DNA of 43,003 nucleotides from a virus (taxonomy: Duplodnaviria; Heunggongvirae; Uroviricota; Caudoviricetes): IMG/VR virus record IMGVR_UViG_641522624_000003, one strand, 5' to 3'. Position numbers and translations under genes: made by a program. Under the pieces are notes generated by a model. It had not been told where the DNA came from. It made no database searches and was given only the letters and a program-made list of their open reading frames with translations. Of this stretch, positions 10,742 to 43,003 are shown in pieces (position 1 is the first letter of the stretch; every line of letters begins with the position of its first letter).

Positions 10742-11199
10742 GAGAGGTTAACTATGAGGCGCTTCGTGAGGCAGCACAAAACTATCAGTCGACGCTGGCG
10801 TGGTATCAGGCTATCCCGGACAGCCCAAATGCTGAACGGGATTGTGATGCGGCTCTTGCTGCGTTTAAGCGTCACATCCGTCATCGGGAAGCGGATATTA
10901 TCGCTGATTTGCTGGATGGACTGGAAGAAGCAAAATCACAACTCAAAGAGCAGCGTGAGTATTACGAAGGCGTTATCTCTGATGGGAGCAAGCGTATTGC
11001 TGAACTGGAAGCGCGGGAAGTTCAATTACCGACTCGCTACGACCTTCGATATGGACACCCGATAAATGCAGATGAGCGACATGTCATGATACCTAAAGAA
11101 AATGGCAGTTGGCTTTACCTGATTGACCTAGAACACGCATTACGCGTCTCTGGCATTCGCATCAAAGGAGAGGAGCATGGAAATAAAACCAGAGGATGA
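10738..11199 (+). CDS. Hypothetical phage protein
   Basis: 153-aa ORF translationally coupled (ATGA overlap) to the upstream gene; no recognisable domain. Confidence 0.4.
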   Translation: MREVNYEALREAAQNYQSTLAWYQAIPDSPNAERDCDAALAAFKRHIRHREADIIADLLDGLEEAKSQLKEQREYYEGVISDGSKRIAELEAREVQLPTRYDLRYGHPINADERHVMIPKENGSWLYLIDLEHALRVSGIRIKGEEHGNKTRG

Positions 11200-11533
11200 G
11201 TTAAGCAATATCGTTTTATTTCCGGTAAAAGAGGATGACCCTCGTAATCAGGTTAATTTTCTTTATGAGCCATCGGAAAGACCATATTGTCATCACGCCT
11301 CTGTCCGGGTTGACGAAAAAGAGCGTCAGGTCCGCTGTAAAATCTGCGGTGCAGTTGTGGAGCCATTTGACTGGATGCTCTCTGTGGCGAAAAGAGAAAC
11401 CAGACTGGCAGATGATGTAAGGCTCTTGCGTCAGGAGGAGCGGGAAAGGCGAAAAAATATAGAAAAGCTAATTCAGATTGAGCGTAACGCGAAAGCGCGG
11501 ATACGCAGGGCGACAAAATCCAGAACTGAATAA
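11177..11533 (+). CDS. Hypothetical protein with CxxC zinc-ribbon-like motif and basic C-terminal tail
   Basis: 118-aa ORF; C..H...CKICGAVVEP then an Arg/Lys-rich helix. Confidence 0.4.
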   Translation: MEIKPEDELSNIVLFPVKEDDPRNQVNFLYEPSERPYCHHASVRVDEKERQVRCKICGAVVEPFDWMLSVAKRETRLADDVRLLRQEERERRKNIEKLIQIERNAKARIRRATKSRTE

Positions 11534-11626
11534 TTAAATTTAGCTCTGTTAAAAATTTAATCCTTAACCGGAGGGATTTCTGCACCCTCAGAACATCAGG
11601 AGGCCGCCCGAAAGGGCGGTAGTTAA

Positions 11627-11809
11627 ATGCGAAAGTTTAAAATAATTATTGAAACGGGAATAGCCGGTGGAGATTTCGAGGATGAATTCGAAGTGGATGA
11701 TGATGCAACACCAGATGAAATACAGGATGAAGCTAAAGATATTTTCTTTAACTACTGCAATTACTCATACCACGAAATAAAAGACGAAGAGGAAGAACAA
11801 AATGGCTGA
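11627..11809 (+). CDS. Small highly acidic protein (60 aa)
   Basis: Track ORF; Asp/Glu-rich (FEDEFEVDDDATPDEIQDEAKD...KDEEEEQNG); preceded by a GAAA-tetraloop hairpin at about 11600-11618. Confidence 0.4.
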   Translation: MRKFKIIIETGIAGGDFEDEFEVDDDATPDEIQDEAKDIFFNYCNYSYHEIKDEEEEQNG

Positions 11810-11978
11810 TTTTGGTTCAACTAAATATAACGCCAGTTTTGAAGAATGGCATGAACTGTTAATGGATTATGCAGAGTTACGCGGTGGAAGTGCCGCTGAT
11901 GCTGAAGCATGGCGTGATGATTATGAAGCAGGGAAAACACCGGTCGAAGCATATTGTGATGAGTGGGGCGATGAATGA
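11802..11978 (+). CDS. Small acidic protein (58 aa)
   Basis: Hand-translated MADFGSTKYNASFEEWHELLMDYAELRGGSAADAEAWRDDYEAGKTPVEAYCDEWGDE; overlaps neighbours by ATGA-type junctions at both ends; below the ORF-track cutoff. Confidence 0.4.
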   Translation: MADFGSTKYNASFEEWHELLMDYAELRGGSAADAEAWRDDYEAGKTPVEAYCDEWGDE

Positions 11979-12490
11979 GCGAGATTAATTATCAGGAAGG
12001 GCATGAAAAGGCAGGGCAGGCAAAACCAGTGGCATGGCGATATCGCTACGTGAAAAAAGGCGTTACGGACTTTCAGGAGAATCTGTGGGTTGGTGACTGG
12101 AAATATGTACCGACAAAAGAGGATTGCAACGACAGGCCGAACTATGAAATTCAGGCCTTATTCGCTGCCCCGCCAGTTCCGGTGACATCAGAAGGACTGG
12201 TTAAAGCCGTGCGCTTTTATGAACAGGTAAAGCGTGAGAATCCACCAGTCGAAACAGGAGTATGGAAAGATGCTGTTGATTGGGTTCTCAAAGAGGCCTG
12301 CTGTGCTGTCATTCTGGGTAAAGCCGACAATCCATTAGCATCCAGTAACCAAGTTGGCGAATTAACAATGTGGGTTAAACGACTGGTCAGTCAACTGAAA
12401 AAAGCTAATCCAGACTGCAAATTACCGGAGAAGGCGATGGACTACCTGAAGCGGAACGAACTGATAAGCGCGGAGGATGTTTTGCGATGA
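11975..12490 (+). CDS. Hypothetical phage protein
   Basis: 171-aa track ORF, coupled to upstream and downstream ORFs. Confidence 0.4.
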   Translation: MSEINYQEGHEKAGQAKPVAWRYRYVKKGVTDFQENLWVGDWKYVPTKEDCNDRPNYEIQALFAAPPVPVTSEGLVKAVRFYEQVKRENPPVETGVWKDAVDWVLKEACCAVILGKADNPLASSNQVGELTMWVKRLVSQLKKANPDCKLPEKAMDYLKRNELISAEDVLR

Positions 12491-12570
12491 CCTGGCCTGA
12501 AGCATTCACAACGGTAGGAATTGCAATAGCGGTGGCGCTGGTGGTGTATTCGATTTGCCACTGGATGTGA
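12487..12570 (+). CDS. Small hydrophobic peptide (27 aa, single predicted TM helix)
   Basis: ATGA overlap with the stop of the upstream ORF; MTWPEAFTTVGIAIAVALVVYSICHWM. Confidence 0.3.
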   Translation: MTWPEAFTTVGIAIAVALVVYSICHWM

Positions 12571-12732
12571 GGTATTAAAAAAACGCCCCGCACACAGACG
12601 TTGAGCGCCTGAGATGTGGGGATAGGGAGTTAGTTAAATAGTTATACAACAATACCTGATTTTATATTGAAGCAAGAAATAGGTTGCTACATATTGAACC
12701 ATGCGCATGTACGTCAAATATGGGAGGTCATC

Positions 12733-15072: not shown

Positions 15073-15438
15073 ATGACTGAACGCATAGAATTTGTTTTGC
15101 CTTACCCGCCGACGGTGAATACCTACTGGCGACGTCATGGCAATACGTATTTCATCTCGGAAGCCGGAAAGCGTTATCGCCGTGATGTGGCGCTAATTGT
15201 TCGCCAGCAGCGGCTGAAATTAAGCCTGTCCGGAAGGCTGGCGATAAAGATTATTGCAGAGCCACCGGATAAGCGCCGCCGCGACCTGGACAATATCCTG
15301 AAGGCACCACTGGATGCGCTGACGCATGCCGGACTACTTATAGACGACGAGCAGTTTGATGAAATCAATATTGTGCGCGGTCAGCTCGTTCCTGGTGGGC
15401 GGCTGGGGATAAAAATCACAGAACTGGAGTGCGCATGA
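15073..15438 (+). CDS. rusA: Holliday-junction resolvase RusA
   Basis: 121-aa ORF with the RusA-family pattern (LPYPPTVNTYWR...DKRRRDLDNILKAPLDALTHAGL..DDEQ). Confidence 0.8.
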   Translation: MTERIEFVLPYPPTVNTYWRRHGNTYFISEAGKRYRRDVALIVRQQRLKLSLSGRLAIKIIAEPPDKRRRDLDNILKAPLDALTHAGLLIDDEQFDEINIVRGQLVPGGRLGIKITELECA

Positions 15439-16124
15439 ATAACCAGTATTTACAGTTTGTGCGTGAGCAGCTCATTATCGCCACCGCTGATTTGAGTGGG
15501 GCAACAAAAGGTCAGCTTGAAGCCTGGCAAGAGAATGCCATGTTCGATACAGGGCGTTACAGGCGAAAAAAAATCCGGTACCGCGATGAAGTGACTGGAA
15601 AAATGATAACGCGGGATAATCCACCAATCCCGGGAAAGCAATCGCTGGCGAAGGGGACGTCAATTCCTCTGGTCAGTCCGGTTGAGTTTTCGACATCATC
15701 GTGGCGGCGGGCTGTTCTGTCTCTTGAAGAACATCATAAAGCCTGGTTGTTGTGGTGTTACAGCGGGAGTATTTGTTGGGAATATCAGATCGCGATAACA
15801 CAGTGGGCGTGGAATGAATTTAATACTCAATCCGGTACCAGAAAAATTGCAGGGAAAACGCAGGAACGCCTGAAAAAATTAATCTGGCTGGCGGCGCAGG
15901 CAGTAAAAGCAGAACTTTTTGGTGGGGAAGGTTATGAATACCAGGAGCTGGCATTACTGGCGGGAGTGACAACTAAAAACTGGTCCAAAACATTTACTCG
16001 TCACTGGGTTGCAATGAAACACATTTTTCACCGACTTGATAGTGAGGCTTTATTGTTTGTAATGAGAACACGTTCAAAACAAAAGGCGGCATTTTCAAAG
16101 CAAAGTATTGCAAAAGTAGATTGA
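15429..16124 (+). CDS. Late-gene antiterminator Q-like protein
   Basis: 231-aa ORF immediately upstream of a consensus-like promoter, a short terminator and the lysis cassette; position and size typical of lambdoid Q. Confidence 0.6.
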   Translation: MRMNNQYLQFVREQLIIATADLSGATKGQLEAWQENAMFDTGRYRRKKIRYRDEVTGKMITRDNPPIPGKQSLAKGTSIPLVSPVEFSTSSWRRAVLSLEEHHKAWLLWCYSGSICWEYQIAITQWAWNEFNTQSGTRKIAGKTQERLKKLIWLAAQAVKAELFGGEGYEYQELALLAGVTTKNWSKTFTRHWVAMKHIFHRLDSEALLFVMRTRSKQKAAFSKQSIAKVD

Positions 16125-16318: not shown

Positions 16319-16394
16319 GGCCCTTTAGCTCAGTGGTGAGAGCGAGCGACTCATAATCGCCAGGTCGCTGGTTCAAATCCAGCAAGGGCCACCA
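16319..16394 (+). tRNA. tRNA with anticodon CAU (Met or lysidine-dependent Ile2)
   Basis: 76-nt cloverleaf: acceptor GGCCCTT/AAGGGCC, D stem GCTC/GAGC, anticodon loop CTCATAA, T-loop GCTGG-TTCAAAT-CCAGC, 3' ACCA. Confidence 0.7.
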
Positions 16395-16395
16395 G

Positions 16396-16472
16396 CCGCC
16401 ACTAGCTCATCAGGAAAGAGCGTCAACCCTTTAAGTTGAGTGTGCGAGGTTCGAGTCCCCGGTGGCGGTCCA
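16396..16472 (+). tRNA. tRNA with atypical anticodon loop CCTTTAA (C at position 33); nominal anticodon UUU, Arg(UCU)-like backbone; isotype uncertain
   Basis: 77-nt cloverleaf: acceptor CCGCCAC/GTGGCGG, D stem GCTC/GAGC, anticodon stem TCAAC/GTTGA, T-loop CGAGG-TTCGAGT-CCCCG, 3' TCCA. Confidence 0.5.
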
Positions 16473-16474
16473 GT

Positions 16475-16550
<76 letters not shown>

Positions 16551-16553
16551 TAT

Positions 16554-16628
<75 letters not shown>

Positions 16629-33416: not shown

Positions 33417-36400
33417 ATGGGTAAAGGCAGCAGTAAGGGGCATACCCCGCGCGAAGCGAAGGACAACCTGAAGTCCACGCAGTTGCTGAGTGTGATCGAT
33501 GCCATCAGCGAAGGGCCGATTGACGGTCCGGTGGATGGATTAAAAAGCGTGCTGCTGAACAGTACGCCAGTGCTGGACAGTGAGGGGAATACCAATATCT
33601 CCGGTGTCACGGTGGTGTTCCGGGCAGGTGAGCAGGAGCAGACACCGCCGGAGGGATTTGAATCCTCCGGCTCCGAGACGGTGCTGGGTACGGAAGTGAA
33701 ATACGACACGCCGATCACCCGGACCATCACGTCGGCAAACATTGACCGACTGCGTTTTACCTTCGGCGTGCAGGCACTGGTGGAAACCACCTCAAAGGGG
33801 GACAGGAATCCGTCGGAAGTCCGCCTGCTGGTTCAGATACAACGTAACGGTGGCTGGGTGACGGAAAAAGACATCACCATTAAAGGCAAAACCACCTCAC
33901 AGTATCTGGCCTCGGTGGTGGTGGATAACCTGCCGCCGCGCCCGTTTAATATCCGGATGCGCAGGATGACGCCGGACAGCACCACAGACCAGCTGCAGAA
34001 CAAAACGCTCTGGTCGTCATACACCGAAATTATCGATGTGAAACAGTGCTACCCGAACACGGCACTGGTCGGCGTGCAGGTGGATTCGGAGCAGTTCGGC
34101 AGCCAGCAGGTGAGCCGTAATTATCATCTGCGCGGGCGTATTCTGCAGGTGCCGTCGAATTATAATCCGCAGACGCGGCAATACAGCGGTATCTGGGACG
34201 GAACGTTTAAACCGGCATACAGCAACAACATGGCATGGTGTCTGTGGGATATGCTGACCCACCCGCGCTACGGCATGGGGAAACGTCTTGGTGCGGCGGA
34301 TGTGGACAAATGGGCGCTGTATGTCATCGGCCAGTATTGCGACCAGTCGGTGCCGGACGGTTTTGGCGGCACGGAGCCGCGCATCACCTGTAACGCTTAC
34401 CTGACCACACAGCGTAAGGCGTGGGATGTGCTCAGTGATTTCTGCTCGGCGATGCGCTGTATGCCGGTATGGAACGGGCAGACGCTGACGTTCGTGCAGG
34501 ACCGACCGTCGGATAAGGTGTGGACCTATAACCGCAGTAATGTGGTGATGCCGGATGATGGCGCGCCGTTCCGCTACAGTTTCAGCGCCCTGAAGGACCG
34601 CCATAATGCCGTTGAGGTGAACTGGATTGACCCGGATAACGGCTGGGAAACGGCAACAGAGCTTGTGGAGGACACGCAGGCCATTGCCCGTTACGGTCGT
34701 AATGTCACGAAGATGGATGCCTTTGGCTGTACCAGTCGGGGGCAGGCGCACCGCGCCGGGCTGTGGCTGATTAAAACGGAACTGCTGGAAACGCAGACCG
34801 TGGACTTCAGCGTGGGTGCGGAAGGGCTTCGCCATGTACCGGGGGATGTCATTGAAATCTGCGATGATGACTATGCGGGTATCAGCACCGGCGGGCGCGT
34901 GCTGGCGGTGAACAGCCAGACCCGGACGCTGACGCTCGACCGTGAAATCACGCTGCCATCCTCCGGTATCACGCTGATAAGCCTGGTTGACGGAAGTGGC
35001 AATCCGGTCAGCGTGGAGGTTCAGTCCGTCACCGACGGCGTGAAGGTAAAAGTGAGCCGTGTTCCTGACGGTGTTGCTGAATACAGCGTATGGGGGCTGA
35101 AGCTGCCGACGCTGCGCCAGCGACTGTTCCGCTGCGTGAGTATCCGTGAGAACGACGACGGCACGTATGCCATCACTGCCGTGCAGCATGTACCGGAGAA
35201 AGAAGCCATCGTGGATAACGGGGCGTACTTTGACGGCGACCAGAGCGGAACGGTGAACGGTGTCACGCCGCCCGCGGTGCAGCACCTGACTGCAGAAGTC
35301 ACCGCAGACAGCGGGGAATACCAGGTGCTGGCGCGCTGGGACACGCCGAAGGTGGTGAAGGGGGTGAGCTTTATGCTTCGCCTGACCGTGGCAGCGGATG
35401 ACGGCAGTGAGCGGCTGGTCAGCACGGCCAGGACGACGGAAACCACATACCGCTTCAGGCAACTGGCGCTGGGGCGTTACACGCTGACGGTCCGGGCGGT
35501 AAATGCGTGGGGACAGCAGGGCGATCCGGCATCGGTATCGTTCCGGATTGCCGCACCGGCAGCGCCGTCGCGGATTGAGCTGACGCCGGGCTATTTTCAG
35601 ATAACTGCCACGCCGCATCTTGCGGTTTATGATCCGACGGTACAGTTTGAGTTCTGGTTCTCGGAAAAGCGGATTGCGGATATCAGGCAGGTTGAAGCCA
35701 GCGCGCGTTATCTTGGTACGGCGCTGTACTGGATAGCCGCCAGTATCAATATCAAACCGGGCCATGATTATTATTTTTACATTCGCAGTGTGAACACCGT
35801 TGGCAAATCGGCATTCGTGGAGGCTGTTGGCCAGCCGAGTGATGATGCATCCGGCTATCTGGATTTTTTCAAAGGCGAGATAGGGAAAACCCATCTGGCT
35901 CAGGAGCTGTGGACGCAGATTGATAACGGTCAGCTTGCGCCTGACCTGGCTGAAATCAGGACGTCCATTACGGATGTCAGCAATGAAGTCACGCAGACCG
36001 TCAATAAGAAACTGGAAGACCAGAGTGCGGCAATTCAGCAGATACAGAAGGTTCAGGTTGATACAAATAATAACCTGAACAGCATGTGGGCTGTGAAGCT
36101 GCAGCAGATGCAGGACGGACGCCTTTATATCGCGGGTATTGGTGCCGGTATTGAGAATACCCCTGACGGCATGCAGAGTCAGGTGCTGCTGGCGGCGGAC
36201 AGGATTGCGATGGTTAATCCTGCGAATGGCAACACAAAGCCGATGTTTGTTGGTCAGGGCGATCAGATATTCATGAACGAAGTGTTCCTGAAATATCTGA
36301 CGGCTCCCACCATTACCAGCGGCGGTAATCCTCCGGCATTTTCCCTGACACCGGACGGGCGGCTGACGGCGAAAAATGCCGATATCAGCGGTAACGTGAA

Positions 36401-36896
36401 TGCGAACTCCGGGACGCTCAACAACGTCACGATTAACGAGAACTGCCGGGTTCTGGGAAAACTGTCCGCGAACCAGATTGAAGGCGATCTCGTTAAAACA
36501 GTGGGCAAAGCTTTCCCCCGGGACTCCCGTGCACCGGAACGCTGGCCATCAGGGACCATTACCGTCAGGATTTATGACGATCAGCCGTTTGACCGGCAGA
36601 TTGTTATTCCGGCGGTGGCATTCAGCGGCGCTAAGCATGAGAGAGAGCATACTGATATTTACTCCTCATGCCGTCTGATAGTGCGGAAAAACGGTGCTGA
36701 AATTTATAACCGTACCGCGCTGGATAATACGCTGATTTACAGTGGCGTTATTGATATGCCTGCCGGTCACGGTCACATGACGCTGGAGTTTTCGGTGTCA
36801 GCATGGCTGGTAAATGACTGGTATCCCACAGCAAGTATCAGCGATTTGCTGGTTGTGGTGATGAAGAAAGCCACCGCAGGCATCAGTATCAGCTGA
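33417..36896 (+). CDS. Host specificity / central tail fibre protein J
   Basis: 1159-aa ORF beginning [35 protein letters not shown]..., near-collinear with recalled lambda J. Confidence 0.9.
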
Positions 36897-36963: not shown

Positions 36964-37563
36964 ATGCGTAAATTATGTGCTGTTATTCTGTCCGCAGTAG
37001 TCTGGCTGGTTGCCGCTGGTACGCCAGCGAGCGCAGCAGAGCATCAGTCCACACTAAGCGCCGGGTATCTTCAGACCCATACTGATATGCCAGGCAGTGA
37101 TGACCTGAAGGGCATTAACGTGAAATACCGTTATGAATTTACGGACACGCTGGGGCTGGTGACGTCATTCAGTTATGCCAATGCCAAAGATGAGCAAAAA
37201 ACGCATTACAGCGATACCCGCTGGCATGAAGATTCAGTGCGTAACCGCTGGTTCAGCATGATGGCGGGGCCATCTGTACGCGTGAATGAATGGTTCAGTG
37301 CTTATGCGATGGCAGGTGTGGCTTACAGCCGTGTTTCGACGTTCTCCGGGGATTATCTCCGCGTAACTGACAACAAGGGGAAAACGCACGATGTGCTGAC
37401 CGGAAGTGATGACGGTCGCCACAGCAACACGTCTCTGGCGTGGGGAGCTGGCGTGCAGTTTAACCCGACCGAATCCGTGGCCATTGATATTGCTTATGAA
37501 GGCTCCGGCAGTGGTGACTGGCGCACTGACGGTTTCATCGTGGGTGTCGGTTATAAATTCTGA
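36964..37563 (+). CDS. lom: Lom-like outer membrane protein (Ail/Lom family)
   Basis: 199-aa ORF with signal peptide and C-terminal F (beta-barrel OMP signature), matching recalled Lom. Confidence 0.85.
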   Translation: MRKLCAVILSAVVWLVAAGTPASAAEHQSTLSAGYLQTHTDMPGSDDLKGINVKYRYEFTDTLGLVTSFSYANAKDEQKTHYSDTRWHEDSVRNRWFSMMAGPSVRVNEWFSAYAMAGVAYSRVSTFSGDYLRVTDNKGKTHDVLTGSDDGRHSNTSLAWGAGVQFNPTESVAIDIAYEGSGSGDWRTDGFIVGVGYKF

Positions 37564-37589: not shown

Positions 37590-37617
37590 AGCCCGCCGGT
37601 TCAGGCGGGCTTTTTTG
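37590..37617 (+). terminator. Rho-independent terminator after lom
   Basis: AGCCCGCC-GGTTC-GGCGGGCT followed by TTTTTT. Confidence 0.6.
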
Positions 37618-37627
37618 TGGAGTGGAT

Positions 37628-40165
37628 ATGGCAGCAGTAAAAATCTCAGGTGTGCTGAAAGATGGTGCGGGAAAACCAATACAGAACTGCACTATTCAAC
37701 TGAAGGCAAAGCGTAACAGCACCACGGTACTGGTGAACACGGTGGCTTCTGAAAATCCGGATGAAGCCGGACGTTACAGCATGGATGTTGAGTATGGCCA
37801 GTACAGCGTCACCCTGCTGGTTGAAGGTTTTCCGCCTTCACATGCCGGGACCATTACCGTCTATGAAGGTTCCAGACCAGGTACGCTGAATGATTTTCTC
37901 GGTGCCATGACGGAAGATGATGTCATGCCGGAGGCATTGCGTCGTTTTGAGGCAATGGTGGAAGAAGCGGCACGCAACGCCGAAGCCGCCTCTCAGAGCG
38001 CAGCGGCGGCAAAGAAATCCGAAACTGCAGCGGCATCATCGAAGAACGCGGCGAAAACCTCAGAAACGAATGCAGCTAACAGCGCACAGGCGGCAGCGAC
38101 CTCACAGACTGCATCGGCAAACTCCGCGACAGCAGCCAAAAAATCAGAAACCAACGCGAAAAACAGCGAGACAGCCGCAAAGACGAGCGAAACCAACGCA
38201 AAGTCCAGCCAGACGGCAGCGAAGACCAGCGAAACGAATGCCAAAGCCAGTGAAACTGCGGCAAAAAACAGCCAGGTTGCAGCAGCCCAAAGCGAGAGCG
38301 CGGCAGCCGGTTCTGCGACTTCAGCAGCCGGATCAGCAACTGCTGCGGCTAACAGCCAGAAAGCTGCGAAGACGAGTGAAACTAACGCAAAGTCCAGCCA
38401 GACGGCAGCGAAGACCAGCGAAACGAATGCCAAAGCCAGTGAAACTGCGGCGAAAAACAGTCAGGATGCTGCAGCCCAAAGCGAGAGTGCCGCAGCTGGT
38501 TCTGCAAGTGCGGCGGCTTCTTCTGCCACTGCATCAGCCAACAGTCAAAAAGCTGCAAAAACCAGTGAAACCAACGCAAAGGCGAGCGAGACTGCGGCGG
38601 CTAACTCGGCGAAAGCATCCGCTGCAAGCCAGACGGCTGCAAAAGCAAGTGAAGACGCAGCCAGAGAGTATGCAAGCCAGGCTGCGGAGCCGTATAAACA
38701 AGTTTTGCAGCCGCTTCCCGATGTGTGGATACCGTTTAACGATTCACTGGATATGATTACGGGCTTTTCGCCATCATATAAAAAGATTGTTATTGGCGAC
38801 GACGAAATAACGATGCCTGGTGACAAGGTTGTTAAGTTTAAACGCGCATCGAAAGCAACCTATATTAATAAATCTGGTGTACTGACAGAGGCTGCCATTG
38901 ACGAGCCGCGATTTGAACGTGATGGCCTGCTTATTGAGGGGCAAAGAACTAATCTTCTGCTTAATTCAACAAATCCATCTAAATGGAATAAGTCAGGCAA
39001 TCTGGAACTCACAGAAATATCCACGGATTCTTTTAATTTTACTTATGGGAGATTTACTGTAAAAGATACTCTTATTGATCAGACAAGTGCGATTAATATC
39101 GTAACGGTTTCTGGCAGTAAAGGATTTGATGTCACAGGTGATGAAAAATATGTGACCATTTCATGCCGTGTCAGAAGTGATGTTGAAAATATAAGGTGTC
39201 GTTTAAGATTTGAACATCATGATGGTTCTACTTACACTTTTTTGGGAGATGCTTACCTCAATTTATCAACACTTGTAATTGATAAGACTGGTGGTGCAGC
39301 AAATCGTATTATTGCAAAGGCTGTAAAAGATGAGGCTACTGGTTGGATTTTCTATCAGGCTACAATTAATGCACTAGATACAGAGAGCATGATTGGTGCG
39401 ATGGTTCAATATGCTCCAGTAAAAGGTTCAGGCACAGCATCTGGAGACTATCTGGATATCGCAACTCCACAAGTGGAAGGTGGATCAAGTGCTTCGTCAT
39501 TTATTGTAACTGATATAATTGCAAGCACTCGCGCAAGCGATATGGTGACAGTCCCAATCAAGAATAACCTTTATAATCTTCCTTTTACAGTTCTTTGTGA
39601 GGTACATAAGAACTGGTATAAAACGCCAAATGCAGCACCGCGTGTTTTTGATACCGGCGGTCATCAAACCGGAGCGGCTATTATTCTTGGCTTCGGTCGT
39701 TCAACAGATTACGACGGATTTCCTTATTGCGATATAGGTTTGGCTAACAGACGGGTAAACGAAAACGCATCGCTTGAAAAAATGGTTATGGGGATGCGTG
39801 TAAAGTCAGATCAGTCTACGTGCTCAGTAAGTAACGGGCGTATATCCAGCGAAAAGAAAGCCACATGGTCCTATATTCAGAACACCGCAATTATCCGTAT
39901 TGGAGGCCAGACTACAGCCGGGTTGCGTCATTTATTTGGTCATGTCAGGAATTTCAGAATATGGCACAAGGCATTGACTGATGCTCAGGTGGGTGGATTT
40001 GCCCCTATATTTCCAGACACCTGTTATCACTTAACCCATTACTGGCCTGCTGCCGCAGATATTCCCGTGGCGAGCGATAACCCAGTGCACTATGCGGATG
40101 CCATTCGTTATAATGCTCGAACGCCTCTGCAAGGTTCTTTGCTGCCGTTAACCCGTCTGGTTTAG
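37628..40165 (+). CDS. stf: Side tail fibre protein Stf, 3' end interrupted by IS2 (reads through into IS2 sequence)
   Basis: Track ORF 37622..40165; N-terminus [27 protein letters not shown]... matches recalled lambda Stf. From 39994 the frame continues into IS2 for 53 codons; removing IS2 and one target-duplication copy restores an ORF ending ...AQVGESI-stop. Confidence 0.75.
38177..38554 (+). repeat. In-frame 189-bp tandem duplication inside stf (two 63-aa Ala/Ser/Thr-rich units)
   Basis: Near-identical units [32 protein letters not shown](V/D)[13 protein letters not shown] offset by exactly 189 nt. Confidence 0.7.
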
Positions 40166-40910
40166 GCATGATACTGATGTAGTCACGCTTTATCGTTTTC
40201 ACGAAGCTCTCTGCTATGCCGTTACTCTCCGGACTCCGCACCGCCGTGTTCTTCGGTTCAAGCCCCAACATCCGGGCAAACTGCCGTGTTTCATTAGCCC
40301 GGTAGCATGAACCATTATCCGTCAGCCACTCTACTGGAGACGCCGGAAGCTCGTTGCCGAAGCGGCGTTCCACCGCTCCCAGCATGACGTCCTGTACTGT
40401 TTCACTGTCGAAGCCGCCCGTAGTGACTGCCCAGTGCAGTGCCTCACGGTCACAGCAGTCCAGCGCGAACGTGACTCGCAGTTTTTCTCCGTTATCACAG
40501 CGGAACTCGAACCCGTCAGAGCACCATCGTTGATTGCTTTCTTTCACGGCCACTTTGCCAGTATGTGCCCGTTTCGATGGCGGTACAGCGGTTTTTCGCT
40601 CAAGCAACAGCGCATTCTGGCGCATGATCCGGTAAACACGTTTGGCATTGATCGCAGGCATACCATCAAGTTCGGCCTGTCTGCGAAGCAGCGCCCATAC
40701 CCGACGATAACCATACGTGGGCAGCTCTCCGATAACATGGTGTATACGGAGAAGCACATCCGTATCATCTGAGTGACGGCTGCGGCGACCATCTTTCCAG
40801 TCATCGGTTCGTCTGAGAATTACGTGCAACTGCGCACGCGACACCCGGAGACAACGGCTGACTAAGCTTACTCCCCATCCCCGGGCAATAAGGGCGCGTG
40901 CGCTATCCAC
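40005..40910 (-). CDS. insD: IS2 transposase OrfB (InsD), DDE integrase-like
   Basis: 301-aa track ORF matching recalled IS2 InsD; overlaps insC as expected for frameshift-fused IS3-family transposases. Confidence 0.85.
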
Positions 40911-41233
40911 TTTTTTGCACGCCCGTATTCAACGGCTTCTTTAAGGAGTTCATTTTCCATCGTTTTTTTGCCGAGCAGGCGCTGGAGTTCTTTAATCTGC
41001 TTCATGGCAGCAGCAAGTTCAGAGGCAGGAACGACCTGCTCTCCTGCGGCCACAGCAGTAAGACTTCCCTCCTGGTATTGCTTGCGCCAGAGAAATAACT
41101 GGCTGGCTGCCACACCGTGTTGCCGGGCAACAAGGGAGACCGTCATTCCCGGTTCAAAACTCTGCTGAACAATAGCGATCTTTTCCTGTGTAGTACGCCG
41201 TCTGCGTTTCTCCGGTCCTAAGACATCAATCAT
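40868..41233 (-). CDS. insC: IS2 transposase OrfA (InsC)
   Basis: Start at [24 protein letters not shown] within track ORF 40868..41278; HTH protein matching recalled IS2 InsC. Confidence 0.85.
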
Positions 41234-41341
41234 CTGCTCTCCAATGACTAGTCTAAAAACTAGTATTAAGACTATCACTTATTTAAGTGATATTGGTTGT
41301 CTGGAGATTCAGGGGGCCAGTCTAGTGGGGGAGTCAATCTA

Positions 41342-41623
41342 ATGAAAGATTTAACACTCAAATTTGCCGACAGGGCCGACTTTTCGGCCTTTATGGAGAG
41401 TGCCGGCTATTATGATGACGAGTCGATGCAGGATGATATTCTTATTGACGTGATAGGTAACGTGTACAAAGAAACCGGAGAACTTACCGAAGATGGCGAG
41501 CCGGTATGTGTTAAGGAAGACGGATATTTTGTAAACGTGCGCATCATTAATGATGCAAAAAAATCGTCAATATTCGATGAATACGTGGTTGCTGTTGAGC
41601 ATCAACTTCGTGGCTGGATGTGA
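41342..41623 (+). CDS. Hypothetical small acidic protein (93 aa) downstream of stf
   Basis: Start MKDLTLKF within track ORF 41297..41623; its ATG overlaps the reconstructed pre-insertion stf stop (TAATG); no similarity to lambda Tfa that I can recognise. Confidence 0.45.
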   Translation: MKDLTLKFADRADFSAFMESAGYYDDESMQDDILIDVIGNVYKETGELTEDGEPVCVKEDGYFVNVRIINDAKKSSIFDEYVVAVEHQLRGWM

Positions 41624-41632
41624 GGAAGAAAA

Positions 41633-42673
41633 ATGGCTACATCGACAGTAATTCCTGAAGACATCAAAACGCTAAAATCCGACGTTAGCAAATTAAAAAA
41701 CGATCAAGGAAGCTACGCAACAAAATCATATGTAGACAATAAAACAACATGGAATAGTTATTGCAATGTAATCTATGATCAAAAGACATTGCCGACCACT
41801 GGAACTATATTTAGCGGTAAGATTCACTTGTCAAATAAGACAGGAGAAACCGAAAACGCTTATAGTGAGATGTACACTAGAAAAAATATTGACGGTACAA
41901 AAGATACAATGACAAGGATTGTCACACACAATGGAACAAAAGGTATCTTTTGGGATTTTAGCGATCTTTACGGTGGAACATTAATTTTTCCAGGCAGTGA
42001 TGGTTACCTTAAGATGGGGAACTGTCTCATGTCGTATGGTGTGCGGGGAAGTAACGCGCTTATTAAGTTTGACTGCACAGACACATTACAAATCAAATAT
42101 GCCAATCATGGGTCAACCATGACAATCAACACACAGGGAACCGCTCATTCTGGCGCTACTACTAGTTTGTGGGGTAACTCTACCCGTCCGGTTGTATATG
42201 AAGTTGGTGCTGATGGTGGCGCTTATATGTTCTATGCGCAGAAAAATACCGATAACACCTATATGTTAAGCGTTAATGGTGCATGTCATGCCACCGCATT
42301 TAACCAGCATTCCGACCGGGATCTGAAAGACAACATTCAGGTGATCGATAATGCAACCGACCGCATCCGTAAAATGAACGGCTATACATACACGCTTAAA
42401 GAAAACGGTATGCCCTATGCTGGTGTCATTGCACAGGAAGCTCTGGAAGCAATCCCAGAAGTTGTAGGTTCCGCAATGAAATATCAGGACGGTGCAAGCG
42501 GATCGGAAGGTGAAGAAGGTGAACGTTATTACACAGTAGATTATTCTGGTGTTACTGGCTTGCTTGTTCAGGTAGCCAGAGAGTCAGACGACAGAATAAC
42601 AGCACTGGAAGAAGAAAACGCAGAATTAAGACAAAGATTATCTGCAATTGAGGCGGCGCTTGCGTCTAAATAA
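41633..42673 (+). CDS. Tail fibre/spike-like protein with C-terminal intramolecular chaperone (peptidase S74-like) domain
   Basis: 346-aa ORF, low GC; C-terminal segment (...NQHSDRDLKDNIQVIDNATDRIRKMNGYTYTLKENG...YAGVIAQEALEAIPEVV...YYTVDYSGVTGLLVQ...ALEEENAELRQRL) has the features of auto-cleaving fibre chaperone domains. Confidence 0.6.
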   Translation: MATSTVIPEDIKTLKSDVSKLKNDQGSYATKSYVDNKTTWNSYCNVIYDQKTLPTTGTIFSGKIHLSNKTGETENAYSEMYTRKNIDGTKDTMTRIVTHNGTKGIFWDFSDLYGGTLIFPGSDGYLKMGNCLMSYGVRGSNALIKFDCTDTLQIKYANHGSTMTINTQGTAHSGATTSLWGNSTRPVVYEVGADGGAYMFYAQKNTDNTYMLSVNGACHATAFNQHSDRDLKDNIQVIDNATDRIRKMNGYTYTLKENGMPYAGVIAQEALEAIPEVVGSAMKYQDGASGSEGEEGERYYTVDYSGVTGLLVQVARESDDRITALEEENAELRQRLSAIEAALASK

Positions 42674-42700: not shown

Positions 42701-43003
42701 TTGGGTAGGATGAAAATGGATATAACACCTTTCCTTCATGCGCTTTGTGCTGTGGCTGCGCAGCTACTGATTGGTCTTTTTACCGGGAACTGGGCTTACG
42801 GGGCGATAGCCGGTTGTACGTTCTTCATTGCGCGTGAACACACCCAGGCAGAATATCGCTGGATTGAAATGTTTGGGCATGGCAAGAGGATTAACATGCC
42901 GTGGTGGGGCGGTTTTGATCCGCGCGTGTGGGATGTGGCAAGCCTGATGGATTTTGCTGTGCCGGTGGTGGCGTGTCTGCTGATCTGGATGTTGATCCGT
43001 TAA
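42701..43003 (+). CDS. Hypothetical integral membrane protein (about 3 TM helices); true start probably at ATG 42710 or 42716
   Basis: Track ORF with stop at the window end; hydrophobic segments LHALCAVAAQLLIGLF, WAYGAIAGCTFFIA, FAVPVVACLLIWMLI. Confidence 0.45.
   Translation: MGRMKMDITPFLHALCAVAAQLLIGLFTGNWAYGAIAGCTFFIAREHTQAEYRWIEMFGHGKRINMPWWGGFDPRVWDVASLMDFAVPVVACLLIWMLIR

Follow-up and report, generated by a model that had tools for sequence, protein, structure and literature searches.

The side tail fibre of phage lambda is an accessory receptor-binding structure: lambda PaPa is without side fibres, lambda particles without the side tail fibre protein (Stf) still deliver DNA with lower efficiency, and side fibres help mainly on hosts that bear O-antigen or a capsule (PMC11990801, PMC11338833). 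The insertion sequence (IS) IS2 is likewise well described, with a right inverted repeat (IRR) of 41 bp, a left inverted repeat (IRL) of 42 bp, the genes orfA and orfB with an A6G motif, and a reported preference for curved or bent DNA (PMC3299598). It is classically polar, with Rho-dependent terminators inside the element (PMC3737525), and its known outward promoter element is a -35 hexamer in IRR (PMC9330008, PMC3299598). RNA polymerase modified by the late antiterminator Q, in turn, bypasses intrinsic and Rho-dependent terminators (PMC4914094). Here we describe an IS2 copy in the side tail fibre gene (stf) of a lambdoid prophage, found in a 43,003-nucleotide stretch of viral DNA (IMG/VR record IMGVR_UViG_641522624_000003), the whole of which is called the window below. 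We consider it highly probable that a standard, intact IS2 was recently inserted by simple transposition into the last codons of stf in an otherwise complete prophage, and that side-fibre function is most likely reduced. An insertion of this kind is known and ordinary, and its site was previously unrecorded.

The IS2 copy and its insertion site

Deletion of IS2 and one copy of GTGGG in silico restored 800 nt that are 100% identical to at least 21 complete Escherichia coli genomes, and because of this identity the event reads as a simple IS2 insertion and as no chance resemblance. The restored empty-site sequence is covered to at least 80% in 574 complete E. coli genomes, and the 100%-identical ones carry a single copy of GTGGG. 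PGAP labels the genes in the empty-site genomes 'prophage tail fiber N-terminal domain-containing protein', 'hypothetical protein' and 'tail fiber domain-containing protein', in this order. The initial annotation had claimed a complete IS2 with a perfect 5-bp target duplication at the extreme 3' end of stf. Both parts are borne out, as 1331 bp of IS2 are flanked by GTGGG on both sides, the sequence is single in empty sites, and the restored gene ends three codons and a stop beyond the junction (Table 1).

The full-length element measures exactly 1331 bp. Its left end reads TGGATTTGCCCC... (IRR) and its right end ...GGGGGCCAGTCTA (IRL); on the shown strand the 3' end of the element is ...TCTGGAGATTCAGGGGGCCAGTCTA, the reverse complement of IRL is TAGACTGGCCCCCTGAATCTCCAGACA..., and the imperfect terminal repeats of IS2 are present with the termini TGGATTTGCCCC... 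and TAGACTGGCCCC.... Annotated copies on several chromosomes and plasmids of E. coli match it at 100% identity over all 1331 bp. A -1 shift at the A6G site joins the overlapping orfA and orfB into a 409-aa OrfAB without stops, orfB matches the Pfam families rve (E = 8.5e-20) and rve_3 (E = 1.7e-18), and HTH_Tnp_1 was also found in IS2. Judged by these features, the element is an intact, standard IS2 of the IS3 family, and it may be competent for transposition (minicircle formation, Pjunc).

The restored native Stf has 794 aa and the C-terminus ...QVGESI, and the chimera has 847 aa. Gly791 is kept with a codon changed from GGG to GGT, only the three residues ESI are lost and 56 are gained, a net change of +53. 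The chimeric C-terminus of the initial annotation, in which ...GESI gives way to residues encoded by IS2, therefore stands, and two of its numbers need adjustment. It had placed the insertion four codons before the stop, which is right for a site at the end of stf and wrong for the fourth residue, since Gly791 is preserved and ESI alone is gone. It had also let the frame run 53 codons into IS2; this figure holds as the net lengthening from 794 to 847 aa, and the actual read-in covers 56 IS2-encoded codons. The observation is thus confirmed with minor numerical corrections, and the interpretation first given to it is supported in part.

Small as it is, the loss falls on a conserved position. 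The Stf end has the form E-x-[IV] in all 29 homologues used (37-96% identity), with at most one residue after it, and because this end is kept in 29 of 29, constraint appears to act on the lost residues as well as on where the chain ends. The added tail is of another nature. It was found at 95-100% identity on 52 of 120 proteins among the matches listed, the carriers being unrelated interrupted genes that include maltoporin, FimG, a fimbrial usher, porins and AcrB-type proteins. By sequence, the 56-aa tail arises generically wherever translation enters IS2 through IRR in this frame, and it is a recurrent annotation artefact. Residues 751-847 of the chimera match phrog_21552, and we considered whether this family represents a deposited phage with the same chimera; this was rejected, as the 52 tail carriers among the 120 listed are unrelated and none has the Stf end. 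The tail being a generic read-in product, it is probably also the basis of phrog_21552 and of this odd match. For annotators this means that the 847-aa 'tail fibre' is chimeric through read-in into IS2 and that its final 56 residues are artefactual.

The occupied junction was not found as a contiguous match in any of 5,426 complete E. coli genomes or in any phage record, and a 31-nt junction string had no exact match among JGI metagenome contigs or GTDB representative genomes. Exact-protein lookup of the 847-aa chimeric protein found no record, and in a search among 5.8 billion protein clusters no match covered both halves, the best one covering the Stf part only (77% of the query). Because the junction is absent from these collections, the duplication is perfect and the IS is 100% identical to other copies, the insertion is probably recent and private to its lineage. 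The recent date proposed in the initial annotation is in keeping with this, as at least 21 genomes have the empty site at 100% identity and none of the collections searched has the occupied junction.

Table 1. Positions in the window of the IS2 insertion, of the genes around it and of the late regulatory features
Feature	Position	Strand	Remarks
Late antiterminator Q (231 aa)	15429..16124	+	PF06323, E = 8.6e-92, profile positions 1-217 of 220; upstream of late operon
Strong intrinsic terminator-like hairpin, lom-stf gap	37590..37611	+	AGCCCGCC...GGCGGGCT then TTTTTT; 8-bp stem with 7 G-C pairs
Chimeric stf::IS2 frame, 847 aa and stop (40163-40165)	37622..40165	+	PF08400 at N-terminus; phrog_1419 'tail protein', residues 4-791
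Target-site duplication GTGGG, left copy (5 bp)	39989..39993		
IS2, complete (1331 bp)	39994..41324	-	transposase genes antisense to stf
IRR, 41 bp	39994..40034		starts TGGATTTGCCCCTATATTTCCAGACA...; adjoins stf body and faces upstream into stf
56 IS2-encoded codons replacing native Glu-Ser-Ile	39995..40162	+	predicted local distance difference test score (pLDDT) ~22-25
IS2 orfB (insD, 301 aa; rve/DDE domain)	40005..40910	-	NCBIfam NF006918 'IS2 transposase TnpB', 706.5 bits vs cut-off 597
IS2 orfA (insC, 121 aa)	40868..41233	-	NCBIfam NF006928 'IS2 repressor TnpA', 275.8 bits vs cut-off 229
A6G slippery site, programmed -1 frameshift	40910..40916	-	motif as in PMC3299598; IS position 409
IRL, 42 bp	41283..41324		adjoins orf93; contains inward-reading P_IRL region
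Target-site duplication GTGGG, right copy (5 bp)	41325..41329		rebuilds orf93 Shine-Dalgarno GGGGGAG
Orphaned native stf 3' end: third base of Gly791, then GAG TCA ATC TAA	41330..41342	+	confirmed by 100%-identical empty sites
orf93, small conserved open reading frame (ORF), phrog_1361 (unknown function)	41342..41623	+	ATG overlaps native stf stop
Tail-fibre protein, 346 aa, C-terminal Peptidase_S74 intramolecular chaperone	41633..42673	+	PF13884, phrog_4563
Small hydrophobic ORF, phrog_1443 (unknown function), last of module	42701..43003	+	stop beyond window end; ~97 aa in relatives

Probable effects on the fibre and on the genes behind it

The protein was classed as Stf by its N-terminus and its position, and its distal module is different. 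The N-terminus is the attachment domain of lambda Stf (PF08400, E = 1.1e-66, residues 5-134), and the solved 'Tail fiber protein' chain 9e7m_Ta aligns with residues 5-97 (E = 8.6e-49). The gene follows J (33417-36896) and lom (36964-37563), an order that is found likewise in annotated relatives and in isolated phages. Behind the N-terminal domain lies a repetitive, Ala-rich shaft; within it we noted internal direct repeats of ~249 nt (38162-38410 and 38351-38599, offset by 189 nt, ~84% identical), from which length variation is likely to arise.

The window is 99.87% identical, without gaps, to a prophage of TUM13770 up to position 38877 within stf. This position is a mosaic breakpoint beyond which megablast gave no match to TUM13770, and from the sequence the C-terminal half of stf beyond it is a different allele, as is usual in the mosaicism of fibre genes. 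The same allele (~96% identity) and the order stf, orf93, 346-aa fibre, small ORF are found in the temperate isolates Lambda_2G7b, Tritos, HannyBb and PhiR63_1, from which it follows that working phages have the uninterrupted module.

The C-terminal 469 residues of the chimera were modelled with AlphaFold as a monomer from a 30-sequence alignment, giving a model of medium quality (mean pLDDT 65.8). It contains two beta-sandwich domains, the first with pLDDT ~85-95 and the second with ~65-89. Foldseek matched these domains to jelly rolls, namely tandem laminin LG domains, pentraxins and the receptor-binding domains of botulinum toxin (BoNT). The first domain corresponds to NCBIfam GTA_spike_fiber, and some homologues carry Pfam LamG PF13385. 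It is plausible that the C-terminal half of Stf forms a lectin-like receptor-binding tip. The last strand (residues 773-781) and a short helix (787-791) both precede the junction, and the predicted elements of the fold are retained, while the 56 added residues have no secondary structure in the model (pLDDT ~22-25). On balance, the insertion more probably impairs the fibre than spares it, and the proposal of the initial annotation that the receptor-binding apparatus may be inactivated or changed is plausible.

Downstream of stf, the stop and start codons of stf and orf93 overlap as TAATG (41340-41344), the junction that the initial annotation had reported and an overlap that is conserved in relatives. 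In the chimera the new stop leaves ~1.18 kb of untranslated RNA ahead of orf93, and translational coupling from stf to orf93 is certainly lost. The Shine-Dalgarno sequence of orf93, GGGGGAG, 8 nt before the ATG, is retained because the target duplication rebuilds it. We also considered whether the IRL sequence occludes this ribosome-binding site. Predicted accessibility was 0.13 against 0.50 for the native sequence in one folding window, and the idea was rejected because the effect was modest and inconsistent across 14 window sizes. Within the IRL end, a TTG shares its frame with orf93 and no stop intervenes (41297-41341), which gives a 108-aa ORF consisting of MSGDSGGQSSGGVNL and orf93; this start is probably not used, as no obvious Shine-Dalgarno sequence precedes it.

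As for orf93 itself, the isolated phages Lambda_2G7b and PhiR63_1 also have it immediately behind stf. No Pfam or NCBIfam family and no solved relative was found for it, and its single-sequence AlphaFold model was unusable (pLDDT 48). A fibre chaperone or adaptor would be the expected occupant of its position. No assembly chaperone of the Tfa type follows stf, the next gene being orf93 with no Pfam or NCBIfam match, and in relatives only tfa remnants are present, further downstream. The 346-aa fibre protein that follows has a weak match to the long-tail-fibre distal subunit 6f45. The ORFs of phrog_1361 (93 aa) and phrog_1443 (~97 aa) are both conserved in isolated lambdoid phages.

The initial annotation held that the downstream ORF is cut off from stf transcription. 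In its strongest form this would mean a polar knock-out of the whole distal fibre module, in which transcription terminates inside IS2, orf93, the 346-aa fibre gene and the last ORF are silent, and Stf is non-functional. Such an outcome would agree with the classical polarity of IS2 through Rho-dependent terminators (PMC3737525), the ~1.18 kb of untranslated RNA would make a good Rho substrate, and the promoter scan found no sigma-70-like promoter reading out of IRL towards orf93. In that scan of promoters and terminators in the region, the counts, those of promoter-like sites included, did not exceed those of shuffled sequence. Rescue of orf93 by outward promoters of IS2, which the initial annotation had suggested looking for, is also unlikely, as IRR faces back into stf and the IRL end near orf93 reads inward. 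However, Q is full length and is annotated as Q in the near-identical TUM13770 prophage, the late genes are all on the + strand, and Q-loaded polymerase bypasses both types of terminators (PMC4914094). Furthermore, a strong intrinsic terminator already separates lom from stf; judged by sequence, this would leave the fibre module with antiterminated late transcripts as its sole source of expression, unless an unmapped promoter serves it. Because of this terminator the module is presumably dependent on antitermination and would normally be reached only by termination-resistant polymerase. The galEP3 insertion, for which IS2 polarity is known, may differ in orientation from the one here. We therefore think a polar knock-out unlikely; the transcriptional cut-off is overstated and is probably untrue on induction, when Q-antiterminated transcription most likely reads through IS2.

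At the other end, the insertion could be functionally silent, with a chimeric Stf that folds, trimerises and binds its receptor and with normal expression downstream. Three residues of 794 are a minor loss, the predicted jelly-roll strands all lie before the junction, the tail is predicted to be disordered, and orf93 keeps its Shine-Dalgarno sequence with an accessibility that is modestly lower and depends on the folding window. Against this, the lost Glu-x-Ile/Val is kept in all 29 homologues, which all end within one residue of it, and the translational coupling represented by the conserved TAATG is abolished. A silent insertion, too, seems unlikely to us.

The reading we favour is that IS2 entered the last codons of stf by copy-out-paste-in transposition. 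In the lysogen nothing would change, because the late genes are silent. On induction, Q-antiterminated transcription would pass through the 1.3-kb element and orf93, the 346-aa fibre gene and the last small ORF would still be transcribed; ribosomes would stop 1.18 kb upstream of orf93, which would then depend on its own Shine-Dalgarno sequence. The chimeric Stf would retain all predicted strands of its two C-terminal jelly rolls, lack the Glu-x-Ile/Val end and carry a floppy tail of 56 residues. The most likely net effect would be a reduced or lost side-fibre function, that is, a change in adsorption or host range on hosts bearing O-antigen or a capsule. Since Stf is accessory, virions would still be made and would infect by way of J, as in lambda PaPa without Stf. 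From an induced prophage we would thus predict a viable phage with altered adsorption or host range, and not a dead prophage.

Several points weigh against this reading. The functional consequences are all inferred. Q modification may be incomplete this far from pR', in which case polarity could be strong. The cost of uncoupling orf93 cannot be judged, as no function is assigned to it. A monomer model of medium quality is blind to an extension that blocks trimerisation or receptor binding. The term 'recent' points to absence from collections and to sequence identity and not to a dated phylogeny, and the intactness of the prophage refers to the part inside the window, which ends before attR.

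Repeated IS2 insertions in the fibre module

Mapping of IS2 flanks in complete E. coli genomes revealed at least 12 further independent full-length insertions in the same module, at least 13 in all. Every one has a 5-bp duplication of its own, and both orientations are represented. They span the window equivalent of ~39300-42177 (~2.9 kb, from the 3' half of stf through orf93 to the 346-aa fibre gene). Five are located within the final ~75 nt of orf93, and all these numbers are uncorrected for phylogeny and exact copy number. The first four copies were oriented alike, and an orientation bias was considered; it was rejected as an artefact of query design, as a query for the opposite orientation found five more. 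The same query design applied to a J-internal segment, which is present in several-fold more copies, found no IS2 in either orientation. The GC content of the fibre module is 37-46% compared with 57-63% in J.

It is tempting to regard the AT-rich distal fibre module as a genuine IS2 hotspot, densest at the A-tract region of the 3' end of orf93, a view that we consider doubtful. Were it true, IS2 would be a recurrent and possibly host-beneficial disabler or reshuffler of prophage host-range modules, and the insertion in the window one more instance of it. A step further, the insertion would be the outcome of a targeted or selected process, with the module as a preferred IS2 target or its inactivation as a benefit to the host, and more than a random neutral hit. 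The number of independent insertions, their concentration at the end of orf93, their absence beside the J-internal segment, the difference in GC content and the reported preference for curved or bent DNA (PMC3299598) could all be read in this way. However, the known target preference together with the dispensability of the module is sufficient to explain the recurrence with no selection, the counts are uncorrected for phylogeny and exact copy numbers, and the GTGGG site of the window lies ~220 nt outside the densest cluster. A targeted or selected origin of this particular insertion therefore seems quite improbable.

That an IS2 repeat was misplaced in assembly and stf is really intact is hardly credible, since, although IS2 is multicopy (a median of ~4 places per E. 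coli genome), such repeats commonly cause misassembly and the junction is in no other record of the collections searched, a full-length IS2 between perfect 5-bp copies of a target that empty sites have once is what real transposition leaves behind, contig breaks or a missing duplication are the usual result of misjoins, and the twelve other independent insertions in the module share the architecture.

Under the reading we favour, namely a simple and recent transposition that most likely reduces fibre function, the insertion has little significance beyond its source strain. The recurrence of IS2 in the fibre module and not in J adds a small point on the decay of prophage host-range modules.

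Prophage context and comparison with known systems

The prophage is lambdoid and lies at a tRNA-Ser beside mtfA; the window begins in mtfA and the tRNA-Ser (892-981), followed by the integrase gene. Next along the window are exonuclease, dicB-ydfABC, a helix-turn-helix (HTH) repressor, cro, replication genes and Q, and after Q come four tRNAs, lysis genes, HNH, terminase, portal, protease, capsid and tail genes, then a 1075-aa tape measure protein, J (1159 aa), lom and stf. Of these, Int, repressor, Q, terminase, portal, capsid, tape measure, J and lom are of full length, and as far as the window reaches, the ORFs bear out the description of an otherwise intact-looking prophage.

The integrase ORF (1009-2059, - strand) is open and encodes 341 aa with the HxxK...GH...Y catalytic region kept. 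PGAP calls this gene 'frameshifted' in every relative checked, including O157:H7, and a frameshift as a sign of prophage decay was rejected since the label is a family-wide feature. The gene ends ~50 nt from the attachment site in the tRNA-Ser, and its 3' end may differ between the integrated and the excised state. The four phage tRNAs downstream of Q (16319-16628) were assigned by ARAGORN to Met(cat), Lys, Thr and Gly, and the annotation of TUM13770 has the Met(cat) one as tRNA-Ile. The TUM13770 prophage carries an insertion of ISKpn26 (IS5-like) at 11510-12703 of its own sequence (L005) and is without ~430 bp that are present at 11131-11561 of the window; judged by sequence, the sister prophage bears an IS lesion distinct from the one described here.

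Compared with known systems, the element itself shows no difference from IS2 of E. coli (IS3 family, IS2 group), as it has the same length, the 41- and 42-bp imperfect repeats, OrfAB by way of A6G, the rve/DDE domain and the 5-bp duplication, and only its insertion site was unrecorded in the collections searched. The closest relatives of the event are the IS2 copies in the same module of AR13438, CEA212U, SCU-105, N32, AMSCJX02, EFF60 and plasmid p13TMH22-2, which are likewise full-length with 5-bp duplications. Each of those is at another position, and most break orf93, the 346-aa gene or the body of stf, whereas the copy in the window removes only three codons of stf. In galEP3 (gal3), a polar insertion that antitermination relieves, IS2 similarly lies in an operon upstream of genes that depend on read-through, with Rho-dependent terminators as the basis of polarity (PMC3737525). 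In contrast, the incoming polymerase is here expected to be Q-modified and resistant to termination (PMC4914094), and polarity should be much weaker.

The gene resembles lambda stf in its position after J and lom, in its PF08400 domain and in encoding an accessory receptor-binding fibre the loss of which leaves the phage viable. With lambda PaPa it shares a natural lesion in stf (PMC11990801), which in lambda PaPa is an internal frameshift and here an IS inserted into the last codons. The distal half of Stf differs as well, with two jelly rolls of the GTA-spike-fibre/LamG type in place of the lambda/T4 gp37-like tip of lambda, and where lambda stf is followed by the Tfa chaperone, the stf gene described here is followed by orf93 and a separate 346-aa fibre that has its own S74 chaperone domain.

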